A stretch of DNA of 64,000 bases, taken from contig CM075992.1 of assembly GCA_038087875.1 (NCBI GenBank), forward strand, positions 436,001 to 500,000, read 5' to 3'. Shown piece by piece: positions 30,801-62,155 of this stretch (positions are counted from its first letter, which is position 1; each line of letters begins with the position of its first letter). The DNA comes from Malacoraja senta (Eukaryota). Below the pieces are notes generated by a model that saw nothing but the letters and a program-made list of their open reading frames with translations, searched no databases and was not told the origin of the DNA. Both the position numbers and the translations under genes were made by a program.

Positions 30801-33800
30801 CTCTCGCAGCCTGCCCCGAGTCCCTGTTTACTGAGCTTGGAAAATCACGATGCACAAAAGTAATCAAGACTCTCAAAGAAATACATGCATCTTTTCTTCC
30901 TCTTGAATCCCAAGTGAGTAACTGCAGCAAGCATACCTGAATCGGTATTGATTTGTGTACCATTTCTGATGCTGCAGGATGTGTGGATGAAAGACAGTCA
31001 CATTCTCCACTAATGTCTCTTCATTTTGAGTTAAATTGAAATATATTTCACTCTGACAACCTGCCTTTCGTGGGGTTTTTCTGCAACAAAGTTAAAAGTG
31101 ACGCCTTGTAGTGATTAACAAATTAGCAACGTTCATTCGGACAACTGCAGCATTTAATTTTGTTTTAATGTGATTTGACTTCATAACAATATTACAGTTG
31201 TTATTTTCTTGTTTTTATCCCAATCAAATACTTTAATGTATCTGTAAATGTACAGCCAAAACGATAGCGTTCTACAGTATTTTGGTTGTGAGTAATTCAA
31301 TTTGGGGACCTATCACAAAGCAGCAGTACGGATTTCATTTCATCAGCACAAGTTTTGTTTAGTTTAGAGATGCAGCGCGGAAACAGGCCCTTGGGCCCAT
31401 TGAGTCGTCGCCGACCAGCGATCCCTGCACATTAACACTATCCTACACACTCTAGGGACAATTGTATTTGTTAATATTTTTTTAATGCAGTACTAAACTA
31501 AACTACTGAAGTGAATTATCCTGGATATACTTCAGAATATTTTTGCTTTCCATTAAAAAAAAAACTATTGCAATGTCAACAGTACAATTTCAATTTTTTA
31601 TATTTTTTGTTAAAAGATCTCCGCATTAATTCACTTGACTGATCCATGTTCTGTGTGTGTAATCTCCAAAAGGTGTACTCGCTCGATTCAATGGATTCAT
31701 TTCATCACCTCTTCAACTCTCACGCGGCAAATAGCAACAGCACCTTGCTGGAGAGTATGGCTGAACAGATAGCAACGTTGTGTGAAACTCTGAAGGAATA
31801 TCCAGCTGTGAGATATAGAAAGTAAGCATGTTCAGAAATCTCATTGCCATCGATGTTTGCTTTCTGCCAAGTCAGGTGCCATGGCCCACTATATTAAGGT
31901 ACAAAGGCCCGTGCAATTCTTTCTTCAGACTCTAATTTCGACCCGAAACGTCATCCATTCCTTCTCTTCAGAAATTCTGCCTGTACCGCTGAGTTACTCC
32001 AGCATTTTATGTCTATCTTTGGTATAAACCAGCATCTACAGTTCCTTCCAATATATATTGGCTTTTAGTTCTAATCCTGAGATTTAATAGTATTGCTCCC
32101 TCCTGGTCTACAGTTGTTAGCTTTGCTGTCAAAAGCATTTTTTCTGCTAAGCACCTGATCTCTTCAAGTGCTCCTTAAACTCAGAGTAAACAACGAGTAG
32201 GAAGGAACCACCCAAGTCACACTCTCTCTCTATCCCTCCCCCACCCAAGTCGCACCAGCTTCTCGTTTTCACCCAACAAGCAGCTAACAATAGCCTGTTT
32301 CCTTTATCATCGTTACTTTTTTGCATATCTTTCATTCATCGTTCTTATCTTTCAACATGATCGTCTATATCTCTTGTTGGCCTTTCCTGTGTCTGAAGAA
32401 GAGTCTTGACTCAGAACGTCACCCATTCCTTCTCTCCAGAGATGCTGCCTGTCCCGCTGAGTTACTCCAGCATTTTGTGTCTATCTTCAGTGTAAACCAG
32501 CATCTGCAGTTTCTTCCTACATAGAATGGGTTTAGTGCAGGATTAGGTTGATAGCATGGACCCCGTGGGCTGCTAGGCCTGTTTTCATGCTGAATGACTT
32601 TGAGACGAAAATGGTTGAAATACAGAAGTTGAGAGCATGGGTGCATCAAATGAGGAGCAATGCTTGTTTTAAAGGCTGAAAACATCATATTTAAGCTGCT
32701 TCCACTTGTTGACTGTTCACTGACCACAACTACAATTCTGCAGTGATGTTTGTATGAGTAGTGTATCACTGTTTTGATTCCTGCAGCTAAAGCATTGTGT
32801 GATGAAGCGTCCTGCAGCCTTCTCGATTTCCCCTCTTTGACAAACTATAAGGTTTGGACCTAATGTTATCCCCTCTTGCCCTCAGCCACACTGTTCTTAA
32901 AACTTGCAGCAAGCTAATTGCTTGAGTTATGATTTGTTTTTTTAATTTGTTTCTTTAGGGGCCCAGATATGAATGCAGCCCTGGCAAATCTAATTCACGA
33001 TAAACTGAATGCATACAAAGCTGATAATCCCAGCATGGGGGAAGTAAGTAATATCACTTATTTATTCCTCTGATTATCCATTCTGTCATCTTTATTTATA
33101 CTCTCTGCCTTCTCTATGACAGAGAGCCAATAGTGTTTAAAAACAGACGTGCTGTTTGGAAAGTATATTCTATGCTATTTTATGGATACTACTTGAAGCA
33201 TTTCAGTGGTCCTAATGCCTCATTACTGATATAGGCTGAGAAACAAGGTCGATAAAATAGCACCTCTCTGGGAATTCTTTATAACCTTAATAACACAGCT
33301 TGCTCAGATAACATTTGGTGCACAGTGCGTGCGGAAGCACCACTCTAAAGCTATTAGCTTACAATGTCATAACAAATCTCTGTGCTTTTGAATTCTGTTT
33401 CTAAATCGAACCTGTTGTCACATCTGCAGTTTCAGCAGATGCTTGGAGTCTGAGTTTTCCCTCGTGTTTACAATTGTAGGCCATTGCTATTTTTCAATTA
33501 CATCAAACTGTGTTTTAATGTGAACTGAACCTGCAATTACTGGAGAACTTCATCATGACCCAGGCTACTGAAACTGCAACTTCTGATGTAGTAGCATTAA
33601 ATGTTGGCTTACTCTTATTCATCGCTGTATCCAACGCCTTTTGACATTTGACATGGAATAACCGACTGGAATTGATGAAGCAATTCCTTGAAGTTATCCA
33701 GCAGAGTGATGTGTGGATGGTGGGAGTCTGAGGTCGGGGGTCATTCATCAAAGCCTACATCTTCTATTTCCCTATATACAAAATGACCACTTTAAAAGGG

Positions 33801-36800
33801 TCTCCTTGTTTCTTTCTCTTCTGCTGCCTTCTCTGTCCATTTCCCTGTGTCCAGTGAGCAAAGACCAAGGAAAGGAAAGTTGTCAAGACTGCTTGCCAAT
33901 GTGCACTATCCAGAATTGTGCGTGTTGAGGTGGTGCTGTGGCTAAGTTAGAAGATTGGGAACTTGGAGACCCAAGTTCAAAACCCACCAGAATTGTTAAT
34001 CTGGAATTGTCAGCAGGACATCGGGTCTTTGCTAATGGTGTCCACAAAACCATTGGATTGTTGTTTTTAAAAACTCAAAAGTTTGCTGTTGCCCCTTTTG
34101 GAGGAAAGCTACCTTGCTTGCCTCTTCTAGCGTGTGTGTCCTGAAATATATTGTCTTTCCACTGACTGGTTAGCACACAACAAAAGCTTTTTGCTGTACG
34201 TCGGTACACGTAACAATAAACCAAACTTCCTGTCAGAGGCAGGAACAGGATGGATAGTAATTGCCTGAATTCCCACTGATGTGTGGCAACATAGTGGCGC
34301 AGCTGGTAGAACTGTTGCTTCACAGTGCCAGAGACCCAGTTCTATCCTGACCTCTGGCATTACGTATGTGGAGTTTGCACGTTCGCCCTATGGCCGTGTG
34401 AGTTATTCACACATCCCAAAGGCTTGTGGATTTGAAGGTTGTGTAGGATAGAACTGCAGGTGCTGGTTTAAATCGAAGATAGACACAAAATGCCGGAGTA
34501 ACTCAGCGGGACAGGCAGTATCTCTGGAGAGAAGGAAACGTCAACCATTCCTTCTTGGATTTGGAGGTTAATTGGCCCCTGTAAATTGTCCTTAATGTGA
34601 ACGAGTGATTGATCGGTGTGGGCCGAAGGGCCAGCTTACATGCTGTATGAGTCAGCATGATTCAATGATGTTCATTTTCAGGATGTGAACAACTAAAATG
34701 TGTCTTGAAATATAATGATCACCCACAGATATTCAGACATGATGTTCCCTATGATTCAGGAGTCTCTCAGTACTTTGCCTGTCTAAGCAATCTAATAACA
34801 AGCAGAGTTTGCCAAAATCATAACCTGGGATACATCTCCCAACCAGTTCTTTTCTACACTGGAGTAGATGGGAGTATTTTGGGTTTATTTTGCTTTAGCT
34901 GTTGTTATCAGAAAATGTATTTTCCCAAATATTTTTTTCCATTGCCAATTTCTTAAAGTGACAATAATTTGTTTAATTGATAATCATTCTGAATTAAAAA
35001 TGTTCTCGGAGATGGGATTTAAGTATTCCATTATTTCCGTGTACCTTCTCTGTTCATTACCGATTTTAATATAGTGGGGAAATTGTCTGTAATGTAATCA
35101 AAGTAAAGGCATTAAGCTAGAACCCGACAGCAGCAGCTGGTTAGATTTGCAAGGCAGCATCAATTATCTGGATTGTTTAAAGAGCAATTAACCAACAGTA
35201 GGCTAGGCTTCTGACTGAACACCAGTCCGCTTGCAATCAGCATTTGTTTTGTTTTAAATTGATCTAAATTTCAATGTCGCCAAGATGTTAATGTATCATT
35301 GAGGTGGGGCTAAAGCTGAGCTCTATGGAAGGTCTCTGGAGTGAACCTTGTTGGGTAGGGGTCAGCGTGTATCAGCATTATGTTTCTTACTTCTTACTCT
35401 CTCAAACTCTATTCTTTCTCATTCCTTCTGGCCCACCCTTCCTTGTCCTTTCCAGTTTCCTGTGTTTTTTCTTCCAGAATGCGAACAATTACTCCATTTC
35501 AGCTAAGGGTAAATAACTGTGCTTTTATCTGTTTATTGTGTGTCTCTTTGCAGACCATGCAAAGCCAATTCTTTATAATAGCTTTCTGCATGTTGTGCTA
35601 TTATAAAATCATGGACTTCACATGCTGTAGATTTATGCTAAGCTAAATCTGTACAATTATGCCAAACTAAAACAGACTGGGGAAGGGGAACCTGTGCTAG
35701 GAGACACAAGACACTGCAAGGAAATGAAATTTGGAGATTGGAAAGTTGCAATTATCTAAATGTGCTGTGTTACTTTCCAATCTTCAAATTGTGCTACATA
35801 CATTTTGTTTTGCTACTTTATCCAGTTTGAAAGATGTTTGTGACTTGGATAAGTAATGAAAGACATCTATCTGATGGAAGGGAGGTGAGATAAAGTTAAT
35901 GTTCTTGCAAAGGCAAGATGCATTCCAATACACACTTGGTGTAGATATACGATTTGAATTACAAGCAAGAACTTACATTTAGAACCTATCACTTCCGCAG
36001 GAGCTCTAAGAATCGTTTTCCACGTTCAGAAATGCTTTGAAAGATATTTGGCCCCACAAGCCATTAAATGCTAAATCACTTGTGAACATGCAGTGGTATT
36101 GTTGGTTTAGGAATATTGTATTTGTCAAATAGTAGAAGCATTGGATCCATTGCACGAATGGAGAAAGGATGTCATGAGGTTAAAACTATTCTCTGTCGCA
36201 CAGTGAAGTAAAGTGAGACGATTTGGGGTATTTATAGATGAATTTTTGAAAAATTGCCAAGCTAACAGCTACGAACAATTGGCACAGAATAGGGTATTAG
36301 CGTTTAGGAAACCATTACAGGTGATTCCTAGGCTTTGATGAGAATGGAATGATACAGTTGTAGTCCCGTCCAGTTGGGTTGTGGGAGAATGTGACCGTGT
36401 CAAAGGTTGGGAGCGGTCAGGGAGAGCGGGGAAGGACAACTTATTGTTGTCACAGTCACATTGGTTCCCACTTCTGGTTTTGGCAAAGAGCCACATGGAT
36501 TGGGGCAAGACCTGATTTGAAGGGATTTAAATTCAAGTTCTAGTTATGAAGGATGTTGTTAAAACAAATTGACCTGCAAGAGTAGATGGGAATGAGAAAA
36601 TAAATACCATTCACATTTATAATAATTGATGACTATTCCTACTCGGTCCTAAATGCCTCCCCTCCCAACACTACCCTGGGATTAGATGAGTCTGGCTGTC
36701 AAGTTAGTGAGGTGGATTTGTAAACATAGAGTTCACTAACTCGGCTGTAATATTTACCTCCACAGATCTCCTAAATTTAGTATACAGTGTATGCCTTTTG

Positions 36801-39800
36801 TTTAATCTATTACATCAATTCTTATTTAAAAATAAATATAGATTTGCAGTTGGAAAAGACTTATTATAATGGAAATATTTCTCAATCATTTTTAGTCATT
36901 GCTATAGTCATCGTTTTATTGAAGACTGGAAGTGTGGAAGCTTTTATTATTTCCAACCTGCGAGGATATGATTAGAACTTAATAGGTTAAAAAACAGTTA
37001 ATCACCCGTAGAAGCGCAGGTGGATCAGATGTTTGCCTTGCTCAAGGAAAGGTGATTTTGTGTCAATTGCTGAATGCTGATTGAATTCCCCCTCTTCCCC
37101 CCCCCCCCCCCCCCCCCCAAGCGCTATGCAACTGCTCCCTCTACCTGCAGATTTTGAGCTTGGAAAAACGTAGTCATTGTCCCAATGCCTTGACCCAGTT
37201 GTGACAGTGCAAACTACCCACTACAGCAGTAATGTCTCCACAAAAATATAGGTCTTGGTTTGTAGCAGTCTCAGCTTCATTTGCTCAGTATTTGTTTCCA
37301 TTTATATTTCTAAAGATTACTTTGTAAGGTGACATAAAGGAAAATATTTTGATCAGCTTTCTCATTTTTTTTATTGATTAGCTTTCAATAGTTCAAAGTA
37401 TGTCTTGTACATTTGGACCCATGTGAAATAATGTCTTGAGGAGATGCAAGGAATTGCAGATAGACACAAAATGCTGGAGTAACTCAGCGGGACAGGCAGC
37501 ATCTCTAGAGAGAAGGAATGGGTCTGAAGAAGGGTCTTGACCCGAAACATCACCCATTCCTTCTCTCCAGAGATGCTGCCTGTCCCATTGAGTTACTCCA
37601 GCATTTTGTGTTTATCTTCGATTTAAACTAGCATCTGCAGTTCCTACCTAAACAAGGAATTGCAGACACTGGTTTAAAAGAAAAAGACAGTGCTGGTGTA
37701 ACAAAATGGGTCAGGCAGACTGAAGAAGGGTCCTGACACGAAACATCATCTATCCATGTTCTCCAGAGATGCTGCCTGACCCGCTGAGTTACTCCAGCAC
37801 TTTGTCTTTTTTTTTGGACAAAATGTCTTTATGCGAATTGTGTAATTGTTTTCTGTAATGCTGCTACTGAGATATCAGAGAGGAATAATAAATAAAATGA
37901 TGCCATCTCAAACCTTTAGCACGATTTATAAACTTGGTTAGTTAGTTGGTCTGACATAAAAATGGACAATGCTGGAGACCCTCAGCAAGTTTGGCTGCAT
38001 CTGTGGAAAGAGTTAACTTTTCAGACCAGAAATCCCAGCCCCATAACTAGGATAGAAAGGCAAGGGTCTTAGAAATGAAATGTTACTTTGATTTCTCTTT
38101 CTACACATGCTCTCTGACAATTTTTCCAGTATTTTCTGTTGTATTTCCAGTTTCCACCATCTGCAGTTTATTTTTTGTCCTGGTCTGAACTTGGGTGGTT
38201 TCTGGCATTATAGCCTGTGGTGTGGGTATCAAGCAGTTACAGGTATGTGGGATCTGGATGGGGAACACAGGAACATGTGGTGATCAAGCTGATTTACAAG
38301 ACTGTTCTAACTACACAAGCAATTCCCATCCAGATGTTGTCACTGGTAGGCTAAAAGGATAGTCAGTGAGTCCTATGTAATATAATTTGGCTTGATGTTT
38401 CTGTCTGTAATTGAAGATAACCCCTTAATCCTGTGTGCACTCTCATATGCTCATTTGTCTGCATCTTTTTGACCAGGGTCCTGAAAAGTCACGTTCACAA
38501 CTATTGATTCTGGACCGGGGTTATGACTGTGTATCCCCAATACTGCATGAGCTCACACTCCAGGCAATGGCCCACGACCTTCTGCCCATTGAGCAGGACA
38601 TATATTCGTAAGTTACCTTTTAAACTACCTTTTTGTGTTGGGAGCTGCTGCAACTTTCTTGGGACACATTCCATTGAAGGTTGTGAAAGAATCCCATTAT
38701 TATTAAGGATAACACTTTCAGGTAAAGGCCAATTTGAACAGTATAAAATGTTTGTTCGTTGTTTCCTTTGAGATCATTAGCTCTTCATTCTGAGTTTTTC
38801 TGCCTTTAGTTGATTTTAATATTCCATTTCTCAGTTCCTCGTGATTCAAGAGGGGAGAATGGAAACTTTAGTTTAGAGATACAGCAAAGAAACGGACCCC
38901 TTCATCCCACCATGTCCGAGCTGACCAATTATCACCCATACACCAGTTCTATGTTATCCCAGTTTTCCATTCGAGACACTAGGGGAATTTTACAGAAGCC
39001 AATTAATCTACAAGCTGGCACTTCTTTGGAACGTGGAAGGAATCCGGAACACCTGGAGAAAACCCATTTGGTCACAAGTAGAACATACAAACTTCATACA
39101 GACAGCGCCCATAGTCAGGATCGAACCTGGGTCTCTGGCGCTGTGAGGTAGCAACTCGACCACTGACCCACTGTGCCGAACCTAGAGATATTTTGTCGGG
39201 AATAAATTGCAATCTCAGCAACTTTCTGTCTTTGTAGTAAGCTGGGTACATGCTTGAACACTTTACTGCTTTATTCCTCAGGTATGATACTACAGGAGTG
39301 GCAGAGCAACGTGTGAAAGAAACCCTTCTCGACGAGGACGACGAGCTGTGGATGAAGCTGCGCCACTTGCACATTGCTGACGTCTCCAAGTATGTGCACT
39401 TGAATTGCAGCTAAGCTTCAAAAGCACTTTATTTGTTGTGATATAGTGAAGGATGCCTGTGGGGCTGGAGTGAACAATTCACTAATGGTTTGGAAAAATG
39501 TTGTGCATTCTGCTTCAGTTAGCACAGTTGCTGTTTTCCATGTGGTCAACATTTCCACACTGAAGTGCCATAATCTTTGCTCTGTTACATTCTCAGAAAA
39601 CTAGTAAAATATAAACACACATGCACACTTCTAGAATAAGAATAATAATTGCCGTCTACAAATATTGAACAACAACATTATTTTATCTAACCTTCCTGTG
39701 CTCATCCACTTAGTGTTGCTTGCCCCATGGAGAATAGTAAAGGAATTTAAAATTACAATTCATTGATTCTACATGTACACACATTAAAAAGCAAGTCTCC

Positions 39801-42800
39801 TTTGTGCCTTCCACATGGAGGGCTCCGATGACTTGATATGACGGACAAATTATACTCCAATTCCATTGTGTGAAAACTGCTTGGTAAATGACTACAGAAT
39901 ACTTGTGAAGCAGTATTGCTACTATGCTCTAGATTTGCTGTGAATCAAAGAGTTTCAACTCCAAGACAAAAGTGTCCATCATGGGCACTGATCTCATAGA
40001 AAATAGGCGCAGGAGTAGGCCATTTGGCCCTTTGAGCCAGCACCGCCATTCAATATGATCATGGCTGATCATCCAGAATCAGTACCCCGCTCCTGCTTTT
40101 TCCACAGATCCCTTGATTCCGTTAGCCCTAAGAGCTAAATCTAACTCTCTCTTGAAATCTCCCCATCATCTAAGGGGTCTACAGGAGTCACTGCCTCAAA
40201 AAGGCAGCCAGCATCGTCAGAGACCCACACCGTCCTCGACACACTCTCATTTCACTCATGCCATTGGTGAGAAGGTACAGGAACCTGAAAACTGTCACAG
40301 CCAAATTCAGGAGCAGCTTCTTCCCCACACCCATCAGGCCATTAAACATTACAACCTCCAAACTACATCGATTTGGGGATTTAGTTTTTGTTTTTGCACT
40401 ATTACTGTTTGTTATAAAATATTCTTGACTCTCCTTCCTTTCATACAGGCAGGTGACAGAGTTATTAAAGACATTCTGTGAAAGCAAAAGGATGACCACT
40501 GATAAGGTGAGCAGAAATTTTTTGAATGCTTATTCCACAGCATAATTTGTTACTCCAAATGAAGGTTAAATAAGTGAAGGGGATTGGACTCTTCATTGCA
40601 GAGCTAATTTTATACCTTGTCATGAGACTGATTATTTTTGTTGGAATGCCTAGGCACAGTGGAGACCTTGATCAAAGCACATAAAATTATGAGAGACATA
40701 AATAGGATAAGCAGTCAGAACCTTTTTCCCCAGGGTGGAAATGTCAAAGACTACAGGGCATAACTTTAAGGTGAGAAGCACAAAGTTTAAAGGAGATGTG
40801 CAGGGTAGCTTTTTGATACAGAGGGTGTAGATGGCTGGAACACACTGCCAGGGATGGTGGTGGAGGCAGGTATCTAAGGAGCTTTTAGGTGGGCACATGG
40901 ATATGCAGGGAATAAGGGTCTATGGATCACGTGCAGGCAATGAGATTAGTTTAGCTTGGCCGAAGGGACTCAAGGGCTTTTTCCTGGGCTATTCTCTTAT
41001 GGTCTATGTTTGATTAGTTGCTCCTTATTGATGTGGGGTTGTGATGCTAATCATCATTATCAGTGATTGGAGGTTAAGAATGTTGACATCTTGTACAGGA
41101 TTTGTTTACCACGGAAATTAAATGTGAAACATTAATGTACAAGAAGCAGATTTTGGGAGTTAAAGTTGGCTAATATTAAATTTGAACCCCAGTCCTTCAT
41201 TGCATCGCATCTCTGTCCAAAACTTCAATTAATGGTTCCAATTTAAAAAAAACTAATGGTCATTGAGGTCATTGAGGACCCAAGAAGCTGGTTCACAAGT
41301 GTTAAAGTCTATTCGTTGGATGTGGACAGTATAAATGAATATTAAATTTGGAGGTGCCCAGTGTAACTTCAGGCACACACATGCTAGTTTCATACTTTGA
41401 ACAGTTGATGTTGAAGTGAAACTGATGACAAAATCACTGATTTTTCTTTCAGGCAAATCTGCGGGATCTTTCTCAAATGCTGAAGAAAATGCCACAATAT
41501 CAGAAGGAGCTCAGTAAAGTACGTGCTCTGTTTCCCATCTGTCAGTCGGATGCAAGAATAAATGAGCAGACGTGTTTACAATGCAAGCTCTAGCAATCTG
41601 TTCCCACAGCTAAATACTGAATGGAACATTAACCCTTTTATAATTGCAGGATATATTGATGAGACCATATCTGAAGTACAGTGCAGAGTTTTGGTTATCT
41701 TATTTAAGAAAGGATATCCTGTGCTGCCATTAGATGCAGTCTGAAGGAGGTCCACTGGGCTAACGTAGTGAGAGGATTGTTATGCCGCCAGTTCCTGAGG
41801 AAATTTAGATCCGAATCTTTGGATTTGAGAAGGGTGATCTTATTCAACATACAAGATTCTTGTAGGACTTGGTGGTAGCTGTTTAGATGGTCCCACTATT
41901 GGAAGAATATCAAATTAAGGGGCATAATTACAAGATTGAGGGGTGGGGACGGTCTTATAAAAGTGTGCATCGGAACTTCTTGCGAAGGCCTCTTTAATTA
42001 TTTGATATTGCCATGGTTCTTGTAATAATACTTTTTTTCCCCTTCCAGTACTCAACACACTTGCATTTAGTTGAAGACTGTATGAAGCATTTCAAAGGCA
42101 CAGTTGAGAAGATGTGCAAAGTGGAGCAGGTCAGATCACTGGGAGCACGTACTAATGTAGTTGATAGTAATGGTCAACGGGCATTGGCCATTTTCTGTGA
42201 CGTGAATAATAAACTGGTCATTTTGATATGAGCCTGTCAAAGGTTCTGTTCTGATTGATTGAAAGATACAAGGTGGAAAATGGCCCTTCTCCCCACCTAG
42301 TCCTCGCTGACCATCAATCACCCATTCACACTAGTTCTATGTTATCCCACTTTCTCATCCACTACCTACACACTAGGGGCAATTTACAGAGGGCCAATTA
42401 GCCTCCAAAAAAACACACACGCACACACACACACACACACACACAACCCCCCCACCCCCACCCCACCTGAGGTCAGGATTGAACCGGGGTGGGTCTCTGG
42501 CGCTGTGAGGCTGTGCTGCCCGTAATTAGGGGTCTATTATAAACTGCTGTGTAAAATGAAATTTTCTTCATGGAACACATTAATAAATACATCTCTGCCC
42601 TACATGTAGGACCTTGCTATGGGAACTGACTCAGAGGGAGAGAAGATCAAAGATCCAATGAAAATAATCGTGCCGATTTTACTGGATACAAGTATCAAAT
42701 CCTATGACAAGATTAGAATCATCCTTTTGTATATCTTCCTCAAATCAGGTGTGGTATTTTTTCATTAAAATACTATTCAGTTCATCCATTGAGAATTACT

Positions 42801-45800
42801 TGGTGTACAAATGTTTTTACAAGGCAGATTAGGTGAGGCTATACTCAGCAGAGCCAGCATGAGAGTTCTTGTTGCTACAGCTTGGTGGCCAGAATGGAAA
42901 GCATGACCATCTTTTAAGTGGCACATCAATGTATCATCATTATGGGAGTTTATTCTAGTAAAGAATACTCAGCTACTGATTCAACTTGATGTGATAGATT
43001 TTCTGGAGTCTGATCACTCAGTCTGTTAAACATGGTGTAAACAGTGAAGTGTAGTAATACTAAGCTGCTCATTTCAGCCTCTGCCAAGTTTATCGATGTT
43101 GGCCAGGGTTCCCTTCACCTTCTAGGCCTTTCAGTTTGGCATTGCAAACTAAGGAGGAGAAAGTTATAAATGTAATTGCTTGTAAATATCTTAAGTGTAG
43201 ACTTCGATTGATCTGGTAACTTTTATTTTTAGATGTCCCAATATACTTTGCAACCACTGAAGCAGTTTTGAAATGCAGTTATTGCACATTATGTAGGAAA
43301 TACAACATCTAAATTCACACAGGAAGTTCACAAAGAGAAGGATGTCTCTTCATAGCAATGCTGATCTGAGCTATGGGGGGGAGGGGGGGGGGCGTAACCA
43401 TGTCTGAAGAAGTATCCTGACCCGTAACGTCACCTATTCCTTTTCTCCAGGGATGCTGTCTGACCCGCTGAGTGACTCCAGCATTTTTGTGTCTATCTCT
43501 GGTATAAACCAGCATCTACAGTTCCTTCCTACACGTCAAGAATGTGTCAATTGTCATTTGTACCGGCAACAGAACAATGAAATTCATACTTGCCACAGCT
43601 TCACGACCCATGAACAAAATAGCAGACAAATAAATATACAATCATCCATAATGCAATATATTAATAAGTAGTAATAGTAGGTAGCCATAATAGTGCCAAA
43701 CTAACGTGTGGTGCAACCAAAACAAAGTCCAGAATAGGTCCTAGACGCTGAGATAGGGTTATGGTTAATGTTGTGTAGTGTTCAAGAACCTGATGGTTGT
43801 TGAGAAGAAGCTGTTCTTGAACCTGGTTGTCACATTTTCAGGCCTAACCCAGAGAGTTAAGCAGCATCTGTGGAGGGCAACAGACGGAATGTTGTGGGTG
43901 GGGTCCCATCTTCACTCTGGTGGAGCAGAGAGAGGGGATAACATCTAGAAACCACCTATCCCGTCTCAACTCCATCTGCCCAAAGAATGGTCCCAATCCA
44001 AAACATTCCCTCTGTTTCCCTCCACAGATGCTGCCCGACCCGTTAAGTTCCTCCAAAACTTTATTTTAACTCAATATTCCAGCATCTGCGCAGTCTTGTC
44101 TCTCTCGTGACTCAGTTATCATTTCTGTATTTGAACCTGGTGGCCTTTGGTTTTTTTCAGGGATCACAGAGGAGAACCTCACCAAACTTATACAGCACGC
44201 AAACATCCAGGTTGACAGCAGCATCATCCAAAATGTTCAGAACCTAGGCACTACCATCATCACTGGGGTATGTAATACCTGGATAGACTACAGTTCAATT
44301 TTGCTTCTGGTCACTTTTGGTAACAATGCAACAATAGGTATTTTTGAACTAAATTCTTGTTTTGTTCAGTATGTTTTACAGGTATAATTCAGTGTATATT
44401 AACCTTATCAAATTGTAATGTTTTAAAATTATTTATGGTATATATCCATGTTAGACGTTTGGATAAGCATGTGGCTCTGCAGCGAATGGAAGAATATGGA
44501 TTTTGTTCAGTGTGATTGCCAGGACGTGGTGATGGAGGCAGATATGACAGTGGCCTTTAAGAGGCGTTTGTATGGGCACATGGACATGCAGGTATTGGAG
44601 GGATATAGATAATACACAGGCAGATAAGAGATGGTCCCGGCATCATGTTTGGCAGAGACGTTGTGGGCCGAAGGGCCTCTTCTTATGCTGCACTGTTCTC
44701 CGTTCTAATATCCTTTTCCATTTCATTTTAAGGGTGGATCACCCTCCAAGTCTAAACAAGACAGAAAACATCGAACAGAGTCAACTTACCAACTCTCCAG
44801 GTGGACACCAGCCATTAAAGACATTATGGAGGTTGGTGCTTACAGTACAAATCCAGTTTATGTGCTGCAGATTTGTGGATGGAAAGTGATGAGTATTTTC
44901 ATTGCAAAACATGCTTGTGCCATGCGTCACGGAAATACCTGGGATATATATCTTGTCTCTGAGATCTATAGGCAAACAGCAGTGCAAGCGCGAGTGTAAT
45001 GTGAATTCTCAGCACTGTTGGAGCTGTGAATGTTTTCAGTGTCAACAAATATGACGTCCCTCTTCATGGTATCTGCCTGCAGGATGTAGCCCACCCTGAA
45101 TAATTTAGCTTGTGTTGTACCAGAGACTGGGAACCCATCCAAATCTGTTACTTTGCAATGGTGTCGATATTTCTGCGTAACAGCTTGTGGTTTTCACAGG
45201 ATGCCACAGAAGAAAAGCTTTGCAAAAAGCAGTGGCCATTTGTCTCGGACCCCACTCCAACAACATCCACTCAGACAGCAGTGAGGTATGTGATCGAAGC
45301 CTACTCTAACCTATTTAGTTGAAAACCAAAGTCAGATGTGGGGTGTGTTGCACAGATTGAACAGGCGACATGGTGGCGCAGCGGTAGAGCTACTGCCACA
45401 CAGCGCCAAAGACCCGGGTTCAATCCTGACTACAGGTGCTTGTCTGTAGGGAGTGACCTGCGTGGGTTTTTTCTGAGATCTTTGGTTTCCTTCCACACTC
45501 CAAAGATGTACAGGTTTATAGATTAATTGGCTTGGTGTAACGTCAAATTGTCCCTAGTGTGTAGTGTAGTGTTAATGTGCGGGGATCGCTGGTCGGTGTG
45601 GACTCGGTGAGCCGAAGGGCCTGTTTTCACTCTGTATCTCTAAACTAAACCAGTAAATATCTTGTTTCTCTTTATTACAGGTGTTGTGTGAATCTATGTT
45701 ACATAGCAGTGAGACTAAATAAGTGGAGTGATATCACTGATAGACACAATGTTAGCTTAACTCAGCAGGTCAGGCAGCATCTGCGGAGAGAAAAAGACGG

Positions 45801-48800
45801 GTGATGTTTTGGGTCGGGACTCCAGGGATGCTGCATGACCCGCTGAGTTACTCTAGCACTTTGTGTCTATCTTTGGTATAAACCAGCAGCTGCAGTTCCA
45901 TTTTATTATATCTTTAAACTCTTCAGTTGTATCAAAATGCTTTGATGGGCAATAAGTGCTGACCACGCCAGCAATTCCCACAGCCAGAGTAAAGGCTTAA
46001 ATCTTGTATTAATGAAGATTAGATTCAAGTTCAAGTTCACATTTATAGTCACATGCACAAATTGGTACAGTGAGATTGTGTGCATGCGTAGAATAACCCG
46101 CTCCCAGTATTTATTAATACTGTGTTCATAATATCTGAGGAATCTTTAACTGAAGTGAACATTTCTTCCACCTTCCAGTGCCCGCTTTGGTCACTGGCAC
46201 AAGAGCAAGACTCCAACAGAGTACAGAAGTGGACCCCGACTCATTGTTTTTGTTATCGGAGGCATCGCCATGTCTGAGATGCGCTGCGCCTATGAAGTAA
46301 CAAAAGCCACCGATAACAAATGGGAGGTGTTGATTGGTAAGTGTCATTCTAGAGTCATACAGCATCAAAACAGGCCCTTCCACCCAACTTGTCCACGCCA
46401 ACCAACATGTACAGGTGTCAGGGGTTATGGGGAGAAGGCAGGAGAATAGGGTTAGGTGAGAGAGAGAGATAGATCAGCCACGATTGAATGGTGGAGTAGA
46501 CTTGATGGGCCGAAAATGGCCTAATTCTACTCCTATCACTTATGATCTTATGATGCCCCATCTACACTCATCCATCTACCTGCGTTTGGCCCATTTTCCT
46601 CTAAATCTATCCTATCCATGTACCTGTCTAAATGTTTCTTTAATGTTGTGATAGTAAAATATCTACGTGGGATCATCTATACTGGAAACACTTATAGAAT
46701 TTGTCCAAATATTGTAGACTTTGACCCATTCTATCCAAACGGGGTACGTCAAGGGTACACTATCAGCTGGCACATGAAATGGCAGCTGGGAATTGTGGTT
46801 TGAATTCACTCATAAAGGCAAGTCACCCATTTCAGTTCGTCCTGCTTTTCATATTCCTGTCAGAAATAGTTATCATAGAAAATAGGTGCAGGAGTCAGCG
46901 ATTCGGCCCTTCAAGGCATTCAATACAATCATGGCTGATCATCCAAAATCAGTATCCCGTTCCTGCTTTCTCCCCATATCCCGTGATTCCGTTAGCCCTA
47001 AGAGCTAAATCTAACTCCTCTTATCATTGTGAGTGGCAAAATATTCTTGCCATGTAAGTCACTCGCAAAGGAAAACAACCATCTAATTTGTGTACAGGAG
47101 GCTCTGAGAAGCACAGTCTGATACTGACCATCCACTTGCAACAAATGCTAAATACAAGGTAATAGTCAAAGTTTGAGGTAATATGTTCATAAGTGATAAG
47201 AACAGAATTTAAGTCAAGTCTACTCCCCCATTCAATCTTGCCTGATCCACCTTTCCCTCTCAAACCCATTCTCCCATAACCCCTAACACCCGTACTAATT
47301 AAGAATCTATCAATCTGTCTTAAAAATATCCATTGACTTGGCCTCCACAACCGTCTGTGGCAATGAATTCCTCTGTCACGGACCTGCCTGTGGGAATTTT
47401 GCCTGTGGCCTCCACAACCTCTTTTGTGGAAGGTGCGACCTGTACAAAAAGGATGGGTTGCACTTGAACCTGAGGGGGACCAATATCCTGGCGGGGAGAT
47501 TTGCAAAGGCTACTGGGGAGACTTTAAACTAGAACGGTTGGGGGGAGGGACTCAAATAGAGAAAGCTATTAGACAGTGTGTGAGGCAGGAGGCAGAGAAG
47601 GAAAGCACCCAGACCCAACATGTAGGGGGGAAAGAAGAAAACAATAATAAACAGAGAATAAGAGGTGGTGGGGTTCTTAAATGGGTGAGCAGAGAAACAG
47701 AGGGGTGTAAAATGCGGGCGGAAGCAATAGGTAGCAAGGTGAAAAGTAAAAGTGGCAGGCAGACAAATCCAGGGCAAAAATCAAAAACGGCCACTTTTCA
47801 ACATAATTGTAAAAGGGGTAAGAGCATTGTAAAAACAAGCCTGAAGGCTTTGTGTCTCAATGCAAGGAGCATTCGTAATAAGGTGGATGAGTTGAACGTG
47901 CAGATAGCTATTAATGATTATGATATAGTTGGGATCACGGAGACATGGCTCCAGGGTGACCAAGGCTGGGAGCTGAACATCCAGGGATATTCAATATTTA
48001 GGAGGGATAGAGAGAAAGGAAAAGGAGGTGGGGTAGCATTGCTGGTTAGAGAGGAGATTAACGCAGTGGAAAGGAAGGACATTAGCTTGGAGGATGTGGA
48101 ATCGGTAAGGGTAGAGCTGCGAAACACTAAGGGGCAGATAACACTAGTGGGAGTTGTGTACAGGCCACCTAACAGTAGTAGTGAAGTTGGGGATGGCATC
48201 AAACAGGAAATTAGAAATGCGTGCAACAAAGGCAAAACAGTTATAATGGGTGACTTCAATCTACATATAGATTGGGTGAATCAAATTGGCAGGGGTGCTG
48301 AGGAAGAGGATTTCTTGGAATGTATGTGGGATAGTTATCTAAACCAACATGTAGAGGAGCCAACGAGAGAGCAGGCTATTCTAGACTGGGTATTGAGTAA
48401 TGAGGAAGAGTTAGTTAGCAGTCTTGTTGTGCGTGCCCCCTTGGGCAAGAGTGACGATAATGTGGTTGAGTTCTTCATTAGGATGGAGAGTGACATTGTT
48501 AATTCAGAAACAATGGTTCTGAACTTAAAGAAAGGTAACTTTGAGGGTATGAGACGTGAATTGGCCAAGATTGACTGGCAATTAGTTCTAAAAGGGTTGA
48601 CGGTGGATATGCAATGGAAGGCATTTAAAGACTGCATGGATGAACTACAAAAATTGTTCATCACAGTTTGGCAAAAGAATAAATCAGGGAAGGTAGTGCA
48701 TCCGTGGATAACAAGGGAAATCAGGGATAGTATCAAAGCAAAAGATGATGCGTACAAATTAGCCAGAAAAAGCAGCATACCAGAGGACTGGGAGAAATTC

Positions 48801-56466: not shown

Positions 56467-56524
56467 ATGAAATTAGTTTATATTTGTATACTTATTTGGA
56501 TCGTGCTTGGGTGTTATTGTCAAG
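56467..56524 (+). CDS. Protease-like gene exon 1 (signal peptide)
   Basis: MKLVYICILIWIVLGCYCQ(G); donor AAG|GTAAGT; phase 1 matches exon 2. Confidence 0.8.
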
Positions 56525-59500
56525 GTAAGTATGGATACTTGTTTCAGACATTTAGCAGTTGTAGAGCAGATTCAGGAGTACAAAAATGTTGTTCGACAAC
56601 AACTTTTGCTGTCTGTCTTTGAGGTATACTGTTGTAACCTGAAGCAAAAAATATTCCTTTGGTATCAAGTCTCTGTTTAATTGCGAGAGCTGATTCACCT
56701 GTAAACCATCTGCCCTACTTAAAGGAGGACACAATTAGAATAAAACTCGAGTATGCTTATTACTTGGTTTGCTGTAAGATTGAAAGGGATCACTTTTCAG
56801 AAAATACTTTCATAGTAATTTCCTCAGTGGAGGAGTATTCCTTGGGTTGATCTGCCTAAAATCATCCTTGTCCCGTTTCATAAGTATTAAACATCAAAGT
56901 GGAGCCTGATCCAATTCATGTTCACAGTGGTGTTTGTGTGGAGTTTGCACGTTCTTGCTGTCATTACATGGGTTCCCTCTGGGTGCTAGGTTTCCATAGA
57001 TACATAGACAATGGGTGCAGGGGTAGGCCATTCGTCCCTTCGAGCCAGCACCGCCATTCAATGTGGTCGTGGCTGATCCTACATACTAAACACATGCAAA
57101 TTTGTAGGTTAATTGGCCTCTGTAAAATTTGCTCCTAGTGTGTAGGGAGTGGGTGCGAAAGTGCGAGGATTGGCAGAAGGGCCTGTTTCCATGTTATACC
57201 TCTAAACTAAAGTAGATGGCCCTAATGTTTGTACTCCCGTCTTTCGCATCCCTTCCCATCAGCAGTTAATCCAACCACACACACACCCTAGATACCTGAA
57301 ACGTCACCCATTCCTTCTCTCCAGAGATGCTGCCTGTCCCGCTGAGTTACTCCAGCTTTTTGTGTCTACAGTTTAAGCCAGCATCTGCAATTCCTTCCTA
57401 CATCCTACGTACCCTTACTTTGAAACCACTTCACAAACTATAGAGCACTTAATGAGAATTGTCAAAATCCTATTGGTATACTGTCTTGAGATTATCCAAC
57501 GCAGATGTTCACAAGCTTACACAGTAGGTGTAAAGAGGACACTACACCCACGAGCACAGGATTGAAACCTTTGTATCTTTGCGCACTTTTACAGGATGTG
57601 GTGTACCAACAGTGAGATATAAAAACAACTTTGCCAGAGAGATACGCATTGGAGAGTTCCCCTGGCAGGTCCATCTACAACTGAAGTGGAAATACCTGTG
57701 TGGTGGGGACATACTCAGCCGGTGGTGGGTTGTGACCACAGCGCACTGCATCTTCATGTAGTAAGTATCATGTGATTTTGGAGCAGCCATAATTTGTGGA
57801 AAATATCAATATTGTTAACTCGTCAGTTTGAAGAAGGGTCCTGACCCGAAACATCACCTATCCATGTTCTCTTGAGATGCTACCTGACCCGCTGAGTTAC
57901 TCCAGCACTCTGTGAAACGTCACCTATCCATGTTCTCCACAGATGCTGCCTGACCCGCTGAGTTACTCCAGCACTCTGAAACGTCACCTATCCATGTTCT
58001 CTTGAGATGCTACCTGACCCGCTGAGTTACTCCAGCACTCTGTGAAACGTCACCTATCCATGTTCTCCACAGATGCTACCTGACCCGCTGAGTTACTCCA
58101 GCATTTAGTGCCTTTCCTTGTTAACCTATCAATTCTAACTTCGCAGACCTGCATTTATTAACTGTTTAAGAAAGAACTGCAGATGCTGGAAAAATCGAAG
58201 GTTAGACAAAAATGCTGGAGGAACTCAGCGAGTGAGGCAGCATCTATGGAGCGAAGGAATAGGTGACGTTACGAGAACCGTAACGTCACCTATTCCTTCG
58301 CTTCATAGATGCTGCCTCACCCGCCGAGATTCTCCAGCATTTTTGTCTACCTAGCATTTATTAACTGATGACCAGTCAGATGGTTGTGAATCTGTGGAAT
58401 TCATTGCCACAGAAGGCTGTGGAGGCCAAGTCAATGGATATTTTTAAGGCAGGGATAGATAGATTCTTGATTAGTACGGGTGTCAGGGTTTTTTTATGAA
58501 CCTGATCACTCTGGTGTGCCAGTACAGCCGACAGCTACCAGTGCACAAGGTGGAGCAACAGACCACCATCATGCACGCTCCTCTTCAGTCAATGTTCATA
58601 GTTTGATCAAAAGAGACTGAAGATGTGGGAATCTTGAGCAAGACACAATCCTGGAGGCCCTCAGCGGGTCAGGCAGCATCTGTGGAGGAAATAGGAAATG
58701 GACAGGCAATGTGTCTGGTCGGGACCCTTCGTCAGACTGGGTTGAAATGTCATCTGTCCACTCCCTCTGCAGATGTTGCCTGACCCACTGAGTTCCACCA
58801 GCTCTATGTGAAACATATTGATTGTGAAATTATTAAATTCATTTAATTTCACCTTTCCATTAGATATACACCATGGAAACATGCCCTTCAGCCCACCTTG
58901 TTTGTCCATGCCAATTAAGATGCCCCATCTATGCTAGTCCTACTTATCCTCATTTGACCCCTTATCCTGATCCTTTTCTATCCATGTACCATGATTTGTA
59001 GAAATTAGGAACTACAGATGCTGGTTAATAAACAAAAGGACACTGGAGTAACTCAGTGGGTCAGGCAACATTTCTGGGGAACAAGGATTGGTGACTTTTT
59101 GGGTTGAGATACTTCATCAAATTCCTATTTTTAGTTTGAAGATAGACATAAAGCTGGAGTAACTCAGTGGGTCTGACAGCATCTCTGGAGAAAAGGAATA
59201 GGCGACGTTTCGGGTCCCTTCTTCAGACTCCTATTTTTAGTTTATTCCTTTTTATTACTGCAAACACAATTAAATTACTTTTGTGCTGCTTTATTCAACA
59301 GTTCTGAAGCTCTCTTTGAAAGTCTCGTCATTGTCACTGGCACACTCAAGCTGGAAGGCTTGCGGATTATTTATGGAGTTCACAAGGTCATCTTGCACGA
59401 ATACTTTATTTTTGAACTGTTTGGGTTTAAAATCCCAGACAACGACATTGCTCTCGTCATGGTGAAGGAACCAATCGTATTCAACAAACTTGTATCGCCC

Positions 59501-62155
59501 ATATGCTTCCCTGATGACCACTACCTTGACATGAGCACCCTGGAGAACTGTTGGGTTACTGGATGGCAGATGTTAAGTCTCGGTAATTATTGTGACGTTT
59601 CTTTCAATATTGTGTGCGTTCGTTTCCCTCCGATGAACCCCATGTACTGTACACCTTGAGTTTAGCCCCCACCCCCTCACACCAACCTCCCCTCTCCCAT
59701 CAGGCCAAAGGTATAAAAGTGAGAAAATGCACACCTCCAGATTCAGGGACAGTTTCTTCCCAGCTGTTATCAGGCAACTGAACCATCCTACCACAACTAG
59801 AGAGCAGTCCTGAACTACTATCTACCTCATTGGTGACCCTCGGACTATCCTTGATCAGACTTTGCTGACATAACCCTGCACTGAACGTTATTCCCTTATC
59901 ATGTATCTATACACTGTGAATGGCTCGATTATCTTTCCGCTGACTGGATTGCATGCAACAAAAGATTTTCACCGCACCCCAGTACACGTGACAATAAACT
60001 GTAGGACCTCTCAGAAGATAAAGGGGAAAACTTTGCTGGTTTACAGTAAAACAAGAGTGCTCTTCTTCCCCTGATAACTTGAAGACAACCCAGACTGTGA
60101 CGTCTGCACCCTCTCCAATACCTCCACTTCCTTCTTGTAATGGGAAGATGAGAACTGCACGCAATACTCTAAATGCAGTCTGACCAAACTGCTGTAAAAC
60201 TAACACACGACTTGCTGATTCTTGTACTCTTTGCCTCGGCCGAGGAAGGCAGGCATACCATATGCATTCTTCACCACTCTGCCTACTTGTGTTGCCACTA
60301 TCAAGGGGTTATGGACGAGGACCCCAAGATCCCACTCTATATCAGTGCTGTTCATGGTCTTGCCATTAACTCTACACTTTCCCCTTCCGCTTGTCCAAAG
60401 TGCAACACCTTTTGATGCTATTTGCTTTGTCTGTGTAGCTGGAAGTCCCATCTCTCCCATCTACCAGACTGTGAAACAGACTGTCAGCCATGAGAAGCTG
60501 GAGGTCTGTGAGAAGTTCTACCCTGAAAACCTGAGGGAAAGTGTGATTTGTGTGACCAACTTGGACAAGCAGCAGTCTCTCTGCATGGTAATGTACTTCA
60601 ATGCAATCCATTCCATCAAACAAGGTCAAAAGTTAGTGGTGCAGCGGTAGAGTTGCTGCCTTACAGCGTCAGAGACCCATGTTCGAAATCTGACTACGGG
60701 CGCTGTCTGTACGGAGTTTGTACGTTCTCCCCGTGACCTGCGTGGGTTTTCTCCCACACTCCAAAGACGTACAGGTTTGTAGGTTAATTGGCTTTGGTAA
60801 AAAATTGTGAATTGTCCCTAGTTCCTCCCCTGTGGGGCAGAGAGAGGTCAGAACCACTCCTCGCCCCAACCTCCCCTCTCCCCTCAGAACCACTCGCTTG
60901 CTGTATCCCCCCGCGTACCCTGTACCCATGTGTTAGTGAGCGGCAATCGCTGGTCGGCACGGACTCAGTGGGCCGAAGCGCCTGTATCCCTAAACTAAAC
61001 TAACAGAGGCCACCTGCCCCACAGTTGTAGTTGAGGGGTTCTGCCACTGGAGGGAGCGTTGAGAACCTATCATGACACTACGTAGAATTGGCATCATTGA
61101 TTATCAATTTAGTGTCTCTAAAACAAAGTAAACGATTGTTGGAACCTGAAACGTCGCCTGTCTATTCCCTCCACATATGATGCCTGACCCGCTGGATTCC
61201 GCCAGCACTTTGTGTTTTGGCTCACCATTCCAGCCTCTGCAACTCATTCTTGTCTGTAATGGATATACTGAACAAGTCAGGCAGTATCCATGAAGACAAA
61301 CTGAGTTAACAGATATTGAGCATTATTATAGAATTATTCATGCATCCTACCTCACTGAAGAAGTTAGCCATACAGCATGGAAACCAGCCCTATTGGCCCA
61401 ACATCCATGCCCACCTAGATGCCCCTCTGTGCTAGTCTCGTTTGCCCACATTTGGACTATATACTTCCTAAATCTTTCTTATCCATGTACCTGTCCAAAT
61501 ACAGTTTTAAATGTTGGTAACATACCTGCCTTAACTAACTCCACCAGCAGCTCATTCCATATACCCACCTGTAATAAACTGTAAATGCACTGAATGGCTC
61601 GATTGTAATCATGTATTGTCTTTCCGCTGACTGGTTAGCACGCAACAAAAGCTAATCACTGTACTTTGGTACACATGACAGTAAACTTAACTGAACTGAT
61701 CCTGGTCTCTTTTTTCCCAGGGAGGTTATGGTGCCCCACTCGAGTGTCAGGACAAGAGGACTAAAATGTGGGTGGTGGCCGGGGCAGCAAGCCACTGCCC
61801 CCCGTCCTGTAACCACACGGCCCTCTTCACCAGCTACATCCACTATGTGGACTGGGTGGAACGTGTCACCATCTCGGCAGGGCGCCCCTTCATTCCCTAT
61901 GGACTTCCTCCCAAACCCACCCTGCCCTGCCACCAAATCCAGCACCCCAAACCCACCCTGCCCAGCCACAAACTCCAGCACCCAGTCGAATTGAACCCGC
62001 GGCAGAAGCCAAAGAGAAATCGAGAAGCCAGGAGTCAGTGGAGGGGTCGACACCACAAGGTCACTTTTGAGAGCAACTCATCGAATGCAGAGCGGAAGCC
62101 ATGGCAAGTCCTTAGTACAGCTGTGTGCCTCGTACAACTTGCACTGCTCACCTGA
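56467..62155 (+). CDS. Trypsin-family (S1) serine protease homolog, catalytically inactive, PRSS54/PRSS55-like, 5 exons, 362 aa, signal peptide and putative GPI signal
   Basis: Exons 56467-56524, 57595-57760, 59302-59582, 60439-60587 and 61721-62155 total 1089 nt in one open frame, all GT-AG. Motifs GEFPWQV, LCGG, TAHC, DNDIAL, PICF and CWVTGW are present; CMGGYGAP replaces CxGDSGGP. Confidence 0.9.
57595..57760 (+). CDS. Protease-like gene exon 2 (His57 region)
   Basis: CGVPTVRYKNNFAREIRIGEFPWQVHLQLKWKYLCGGDILSRWWVVTTAHCIFM; donor TA|GTAAGT. Confidence 0.92.
57848..58103 (+). repeat. Tandem array of four 64-66 bp PLE-derived units (A-B-A-B)
   Basis: Units start at 57848, 57914, 57978 and 58044. 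Confidence 0.9.
59302..59582 (+). CDS. Protease-like gene exon 3 (Asp102 region)
   Basis: ...VHKVILHE...DNDIALVMVKEPIVFNKLVSPICFP...ENCWVTGW. Confidence 0.93.
59700..60000 (+). mobile_element. Rex1/Babar-like LINE 3' end
   Basis: Encodes ...HTSRFRDSFFPAVIRQLN, followed by the shared 3' UTR. Confidence 0.7.
60439..60587 (+). CDS. Protease-like gene exon 4
   Basis: GSPISPIYQTVKQTVSHEKLEVCEKFYPENLRESVICVTNLDKQQSLCM; phases 1 and 0 fit the neighbouring exons. Confidence 0.88.
60633..61003 (+). mobile_element. tRNA-derived SINE (HE1/V-SINE-like) with internal insertion
   Basis: SINE consensus 5' and 3' parts. Confidence 0.8.
61721..62155 (+). CDS. Protease-like gene exon 5 (terminal)
   Basis: GGYGAPLECQDKRTKMWVVAG...YVDWVERVTISAGRPF...VLSTAVCLVQLALLT*. 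Confidence 0.92.
   Translation, partial: GGYGAPLECQDKRTKMWVVAGAASHCPPSCNHTALFTSYIHYVDWVERVTISAGRPFIPYGLPPKPTLPCHQIQHPKPTLPSHKLQHPVELNPRQKPKRNREARSQWRGRHHKVTFESNSSNAERKPWQVLSTAVCLVQLALLT

Follow-up and report, generated by a model that had tools for sequence, protein, structure and literature searches.

A 64,000-nt stretch of genomic DNA from the skate Malacoraja senta (hereafter the window) carries on its forward strand, at 56467..62155, a gene for an S1 serine protease homologue that retains its cysteines and an open spliced frame and has lost part of its catalytic residues. This gene, referred to here as the skate gene, has five exons, all bounded by GT-AG introns (phases 1, 2, 1 and 0), which are spliced into 362 open codons followed by TGA; the canonical ends and the uninterrupted frame bear out an earlier note on this DNA that had read it as a five-exon frame of 362 amino acids (aa). 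The exons and the main catalytic positions are the following, "c" numbers denoting chymotrypsin positions throughout:

56467..56524 (+): exon 1, with the ATG, a predicted signal peptide (aa 1-19; mean hydropathy 2.38 over aa 1-15) and a phase 1 donor (GT)
57595..57760 (+): exon 2, with Cys1, a degenerate activation segment (Asn at c16, no IVGG), EFPW, Cys42, His57 and Cys58; 42/55 identical to whale shark
57744..57746 (+): His57 codon CAC, kept; TTAHC in 5/5 rows with a complete exon 2
59302..59582 (+): exon 3, with Asp102, Cys122 and Cys136; 58/94 identical to whale shark
59444..59446 (+): Asp102 codon GAC, kept
60439..60587 (+): exon 4, with Cys168, Cys182, Ser189 and Cys191, and a phase 0 donor immediately 5' of GGYGAP; 33/50 identical to whale shark
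61721..62155 (+): exon 5, with GGYGAP, the remaining domain, a Pro-rich and basic linker, a hydrophobic tail and TGA; core 42/59 and tail 34/72 identical to whale shark
61724..61729 (+): Gly194 and Tyr195 replacing Asp194 and Ser195, in 9/13 chondrichthyan rows (8 species), the other four rows lacking this exon

Genes of the trypsin and kallikrein type usually have the catalytic His at the end of exon 2, the Asp in exon 3 and the Ser motif opening exon 5, and the skate gene shares this layout, with GGYGAP in the last of these places. The cysteines, described as preserved in the earlier note, include all ten canonical S1A positions (aa 21, 55, 71, 143, 158, 192, 206, 217, 227 and 248), the canonical pairing being 1-122, 42-58, 136-201, 168-182 and 191-220, and the signal-like N-terminus encoded by exon 1 resembles the start of the Scyliorhinus canicula X1 model (P0198). 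Two of the four exons scanned singly, exon 2 (E 1.7e-9) and exon 3 (E 4.2e-7), match the Pfam Trypsin family (PF00089), exons 4 and 5 give no match to it when scanned alone, and two whole orthologues match it at E 6.6e-32 and 5.8e-33. No paralogue of the gene was found by tblastn within the window, 28% of which is self-matching owing to short interspersed repeats that also fill the introns of the gene.

Catalytic residues and activation site

The His57-Asp102-Ser195 triad of the skate protein is incomplete: His and Asp are present, and the GDSGGP motif has become GGYGAP, with Tyr at 195 (codon TAT, 61727-61729). Gly194 and Tyr195 were assigned from the alignment of CMGGYGAPL in the catshark orthologue with CNGDSGGPL in elastase, and this alignment, together with the codons themselves, agrees with the earlier note, which had reported His57 and Asp102 as retained and Asp194 and Ser195 as replaced. 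Its description of the activation site as K-NNFA also holds, with Asn30 falling at c16 (13 residues upstream of the Trp of EFPW) and no R/K-IVGG. In the five complete elasmobranch rows, c16 is always Asn and is preceded by Lys in three and by Glu in two, and there is therefore no conserved activation cut. An alternative exon supplying GDSGGP had been envisaged in the earlier note, and no other exon of this type came out of a motif scan of the window in all six frames.

In S1 proteases, Ser195 and the Ile16-Asp194 salt bridge are both needed, and without them peptides are not cleaved and a zymogen-like state persists. With no nucleophile, no activation salt bridge and a narrowed S1 entrance (Cys at c216, see below), the skate protein is thus predicted, from established S1 biochemistry, to be unable to cut peptides and to stay zymogen-like.

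Conservation, predicted fold and family position

Of the 24 candidates obtained in a search with exon 3, a single one was a longer protein, Amblyraja radiata XP_032868086.1, which bears the name "inactive serine protease 54-like"; used in turn as a query, this protein gave six relatives among 126 candidates, and cluster look-ups added Leucoraja, Hemiscyllium, Chiloscyllium plagiosum, Cetorhinus and a complete isoform of S. canicula. GGYGAP is identical in all nine rows that have the last exon (eight skate and shark species, window included), out of 13 chondrichthyan rows in total, the other four models being truncated or fused 5' of the GGYGAP exon. The nearest relatives are two skates, the domain being identical to that of Amblyraja radiata at 171/183 positions, in keeping with the cartilaginous-fish source suggested in the earlier note. 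The split between skates and sharks is well over 200 million years old, and the whale shark and skate proteins remain identical at 174/257 positions of the domain and 34/72 of the tail.

Complete models exist in S. canicula, Rhincodon and Hemiscyllium. Both skate RefSeq models start at an internal Met in exon 3, and look truncated because the same residue is Leu in the window. These RefSeq entries represent the same gene, as they form one orthogroup with a common GGYGAP, Cys216 and tail, but their automated names are inconsistent: Leucoraja erinacea (XP_055520026.1) shares the name given in Amblyraja, and Rhincodon (XP_048473773.1), Hemiscyllium (XP_060710946.1), Chiloscyllium plagiosum (XP_043550789.1) and S. 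canicula (XP_038640495.1) are called "serine protease 52-like". The skate models lack exons 1-2, and the shark names do not flag inactivity. The gene is thus less unknown than the earlier note implied, since automated names already flag an inactive PRSS54-like protein.

DNA of a relative (run X21) shows 11 synonymous changes out of 16 exon differences among those listed. For exons 2-3, 10 of the 15 listed differences are synonymous as against 94 of 444 sites, which gives a ratio of nonsynonymous to synonymous differences (pN/pS) of ~0.13 (binomial p=0.0002), in a partial count drawn from a table with 353 further rows. A second run has three synonymous changes among six listed exon differences, and X21 lacks 9 bases, in frame, at the beginning of exon 4. 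The skate gene is under purifying selection, and it very probably encodes a functional pseudoprotease. The earlier view of a maintained non-catalytic protein, and not a pseudogene, is upheld by the presence of GGYGAP in 8/8 species and by the level of domain identity with the whale shark.

The fold was predicted with AlphaFold for the whale-shark orthologue (P0002) from a 30-sequence alignment. The model (mean predicted local distance difference test, pLDDT, of 76.4, with a tail below 50) has a chymotrypsin fold, matching chymotrypsinogen with a Z of 29.6 and a root-mean-square deviation of 2.1 over 226 residues. Zymogen and active structures tie as matches, and the model is therefore silent on conformation.

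For the family position, 380 domains were reduced to 74 rows for a quick tree, and 23 redundant or long rows were then dropped and four added for a more careful tree (55 rows, 260 columns), whose two-row outgroup does not lie on one side of a branch. The chondrichthyan orthogroup, in which the window sequence is joined by two skates, three sharks and one protein of Callorhinchus, forms a clade supported at 100/99. It is nested in a 26-row clade with the same support, whose other members are a second chondrichthyan paralogue, also inactive, PRSS54 of echidna and alligator, PRSSLY-like domains found in newt, caecilian and lizard, and proteins of lungfish, coelacanth and amphibians. PRSS55 and PRSS52 come in only with a wider clade of 36 rows (97/84), and both splits recur in the 74-row tree, at values of 99 and 97, respectively for the wider and the inner clade, in the Shimodaira-Hasegawa-like approximate likelihood ratio test (SH-aLRT). 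This phylogeny, a check proposed in the earlier note and run here on 55 rows without testisin, makes the PRSS52/54/55/PRSSLY clade monophyletic with respect to other S1A groups. Approximately unbiased (AU) tests on 39 of the 55 rows (LG+G4) reject a grouping with PRSS55 (p=0.024), are borderline for PRSS52 (p=0.056), and do not reject PRSS54 (p=0.41), lungfish (p=0.46), the second chondrichthyan paralogue (p=0.45) or the PRSSLY-like domains (p=0.33). Of the kinship with PRSS54/PRSS55 that the earlier note had proposed, common membership of the 97/84 clade stands, and PRSS55 orthology does not.

The triad is clearly kept in four of the 26 clade rows (two lungfish, one axolotl and one coelacanth); this count leaves aside the Callorhinchus letters at 194/195 and the Lissotriton His57, which are read from truncated models. 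His57 and Asp102 are both gone from the PRSS54 rows, of which that of alligator still has Ser195, and position 195 in inactivated members of the group is Tyr, Ala, Pro, Ile, Glu, Arg or Asn. Because different catalytic residues were lost, inactivation of the skate gene looks independent of that of PRSS54, and an active ancestor followed by separate losses of catalysis looks the simplest reading of the aligned residues. The earlier note had offered "deep-branching or convergent" as a choice; both hold, as a homologous clade with independent catalytic loss.

Several other members of the clade deserve mention in their own right. The second chondrichthyan member (Callorhinchus P0155; Scyliorhinus P0159/P0038), misnamed "chymotrypsin-like protease CTRL-1", is inactive, with Ala195, a lost His57 and a hydrophobic tail. 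Squamate "PRSS55" proteins (P0087, P0128, P0116) show partial triad loss, with Arg195 in Zootoca and Asn102 in Pantherophis, and the Latimeria protein XP_014345810.1 (P0153), named "inactive serine protease 54-like", keeps His57, Asp102 and Ser195. The PRSSLY-like domains (P0010, P0015, P0110) lie nearer to PRSS54 and the skate gene than to PRSS55, with low support within the clade; PRSS55 is named as the closest relative of PRSSLY in PMC9178871. No teleost name occurs among the named clade members, no systematic search for teleosts having been made.

Tail, expression and proposed function

Four features of the protein are absent from the earlier note:

61796..61798 (+): Cys at c216, normally Gly at the S1 pocket entrance; Cys in six elasmobranch rows only and in 0/49 others (55 rows)
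61928..61930 (+): conserved tail Cys (aa 288), in a PTxxCxxI motif in 8/13 rows
62000..62059 (+): basic linker (aa 312-331), with 13-20 Lys and Arg versus 2-3 Asp and Glu in 7/7 elasmobranch tails
62072..62152 (+): end resembling a glycosylphosphatidylinositol (GPI) signal, with small residues (aa 336-340), a polar spacer and a hydrophobic C-terminus, from hydropathy

Cys216 and Cys288 may form a pair. The tails of other clade members have 6-10 Lys and Arg (nine checked), without a comparable basic linker. The C-terminus reaches a best 12-residue hydropathy of 1.94-3.06 in 7/7 elasmobranch rows, and the protein is likely to be membrane or GPI anchored, judging from its predicted tail. A Pro/His-rich repeat unit in the linker (61900-61990) varies in copy number among skates, Leucoraja (P0195) having one extra.

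Upstream of the skate gene, whose downstream flank lies beyond the window, are a PET100 exon (5582-5728, +; Pfam PF09803, E 1.5e-11) and exons of a Munc18/STXBP gene (31643-46336, +; Pfam Sec1), found by scanning 300 of the 381 listed non-repeat frames; with candidate exons included, the Munc18/STXBP gene spans 29654-46336. STXBP1 and STXBP2 tie on one exon of the latter (80.0 vs 79.4 bits), and STXBP2 is favoured because of the PET100 neighbour and of the human order PET100-PCP2-STXBP2. To our knowledge, human has no gene like the skate gene at this locus. The Carcharodon (P0005) and Cetorhinus (P0199) models fuse exons 3-4 to two GoLoco motifs, and may represent either an annotation fused with a PCP2-like neighbour or a real loss of exon 5 in lamniforms; the GoLoco part, presumably PCP2, would agree with a position of PCP2 near the protease gene in sharks, and nothing in the window matches it (best E 0.17).

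Where is such a protein made? No RNA run over the gene was found among the sequencing runs listed, in a search dominated by short repeats. Reads of four of 24 runs were aligned to the interval; no splice joint is among the 15 joints listed (with 17,237 more in the set), and run X6 does not cover the repeat-free exon bins. In run X1 (labelled "RNA? probably DNA", from one study, depth 2.6), pieces at 59433-59582 and 60437-60476 end near the exon 3 donor and the exon 4 acceptor; these ends (~59582, 60437) derive from distance-to-end values, and were too weak to be counted as expression evidence. The main texts of a catshark semen proteome (PMC11083954) and of a catshark testis proteome (PMC13052469) contain no "serine protease" and no mention of the gene, respectively. 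As for relatives, the literature describes PRSS55 as testis-specific and predicted to be GPI-anchored, with sperm migration blocked by its loss (PMC7401375, PMC7882947), and PRSS54 as acrosomal, with reduced fertility in knockouts (review PMC13184221). Chondrichthyans retain acrosomes and acrosin according to PMC13762310, which makes a sperm role plausible. By analogy with these proteins, expression would probably be mainly in testis or sperm.

Taken together, these observations favour, with modest confidence, a chymotrypsin-fold pseudoprotease that an intact gene of cartilaginous fishes encodes, secreted, probably held by a GPI anchor and acting as a surface binding protein, most likely in the male germ line. 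With Ser195, Asp194 and the Ile16 site lost, the protein would be locked in a zymogen-like form without catalysis; because the His57/Asp102/Tyr195 cleft is strictly kept, it may bind something, and would then have become a binding surface, as the Tyr-bearing region of HGF suggests. The protein could serve at the cell surface as an adaptor or to regulate other proteases, and spermatids or sperm would be its most likely site if PRSS54, PRSS55 and PRSSLY are a guide. Its ancestor would have had an intact triad, within a clade dating back to the origin of jawed vertebrates, and catalysis would have been lost independently of PRSS54.

Several points weigh against this proposal. Similarity to the query guided the choice of the tree rows, which do not include PRSS37, testisin, HGF or the human PRSS54/55, and five of the six AU hypotheses for the sister group within the clade were not rejected. 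Signal-peptide and GPI-signal calls were made from hydropathy alone, testis expression is read from relatives only, and the HGF analogy is partial because HGF keeps the Asp194 salt bridge that the skate protein lacks. PRSS54 was dispensable for mouse fertility in one knockout study (PMC7013879), and PRSSLY orthologues outside eutherians are broadly expressed, according to PMC9178871.

The last point also speaks for the same pseudoprotease having a somatic role (immune, epithelial, endocrine or in the female tract), as a ligand or as a regulator of proteases, unrelated to sperm. The structural and conservation evidence fits this equally well and Tyr at c195 recalls the signalling pseudoprotease HGF, but all three mammalian clade members that have been characterised belong to testis or sperm, and the layout of signal, domain, linker and hydrophobic tail matches PRSS55; a somatic role is possible without being the likelier outcome. 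That the skate gene is the true chondrichthyan orthologue of amniote PRSS54, at a different locus, is improbable: they share the 100/99 clade, a joint clade is compatible with the AU test (p=0.41) and RefSeq uses that name in two skates, yet free trees do not join them and different catalytic residues were lost. Moreover, the skate protein is identical to echidna PRSS54 at 74/236 positions, below lungfish (95/240) and coelacanth (96/240), groupings with lungfish, the second paralogue or PRSSLY-like domains fit as well, and the neighbours are PET100 and a Munc18 gene, surroundings from which the human PRSS54 neighbourhood presumably differs.

The retention of His57, Asp102 and Ser214 in all complete elasmobranch rows would fit a protein that is still an enzyme, through an alternative GDSGGP exon or an unusual nucleophile working with His57/Asp102. 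This is very unlikely, as the window has no such exon in six frames, eight species share the GGYGAP exon, and Asp194, the activation site and Gly216 are changed too. Least credible is a decaying pseudogene, which the skate RefSeq proteins starting in exon 3, the two lamniform models running into GoLoco exons and the chimaera model ending after exon 4 might suggest; against it stand the open frame and canonical splice sites, the skate-whale shark identity, the synonymous excess and the complete models of three sharks.

A more speculative extension of the germ-line proposal, which we consider unlikely as a whole, is that jawed vertebrates had from the start surface-anchored sperm proteins of PRSS54/55 type that lost catalysis many times. 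The skate gene would then be a zymogen-locked ligand frozen for hundreds of millions of years. By way of Cys216, the basic linker and a Tyr195 pseudo-active site resembling that of HGF by convergence, it would bind a partner on the egg or in the female tract while sperm are stored and fertilisation takes place internally. Inactive homologues are frequent among S1 proteases. If the reproductive reading is true, the PRSS54/PRSS55/PRSSLY group, studied almost only in mammals, dates back to the jawed-vertebrate ancestor and was inactivated repeatedly by different routes, offering a natural series for studying the function of non-catalytic proteases of sperm, together with a candidate marker of the sperm surface in sharks and skates. 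If the role is somatic, the gene still encodes a pseudoenzyme that is conserved and specific to its lineage, and its gene model is now corrected. The invariant His57/Asp102/Tyr195 cleft clearly exemplifies selection acting on a pseudo-active site. No paper on this gene was found under shark or chondrichthyan, testis, PRSS54/55 and pseudoprotease topics, subscription papers being mostly outside the coverage. New here are the complete gene model, a signature of Gly194/Tyr195/Cys216 that does not vary, the tail that is likely to carry a GPI signal, and the recognition of an independently inactivated chondrichthyan branch of the PRSS54/55/PRSSLY clade.

Comparison with known systems

Amniote PRSS54 resembles the skate protein in being inactive, in belonging to the same 26-row clade and in its order of signal, S1 domain, linker and hydrophobic end. 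It differs in having lost His57/Asp102, with Pro or Ser at 195, whereas the skate protein has His57/Asp102 with Gly194/Tyr195. PRSS55 and PRSS52 share with it the 97/84 clade and a C-terminal domain motif ending in G(R/K)PF, and PRSS55, with its predicted GPI anchor, also matches its layout from signal to hydrophobic tail; squirrel PRSS55, unlike the skate protein, keeps IVGG and a full triad. PRSSLY is represented by the domains of a Pleurodeles protein (from a cluster named PRSSLY-like), which fall in the same 26-row clade and have a broken triad.

Outside this group, the HGF beta chain also has Tyr replacing Ser195 in its pseudo-active site. According to PMC11399343, this Tyr-bearing region of HGF binds MET, and the Val-Asp194 activation salt bridge is kept. 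HGF differs from the skate protein by this retained salt bridge, by the loss of His57 and by its additional domains, and the resemblance of the two proteins at Tyr195 is convergent.

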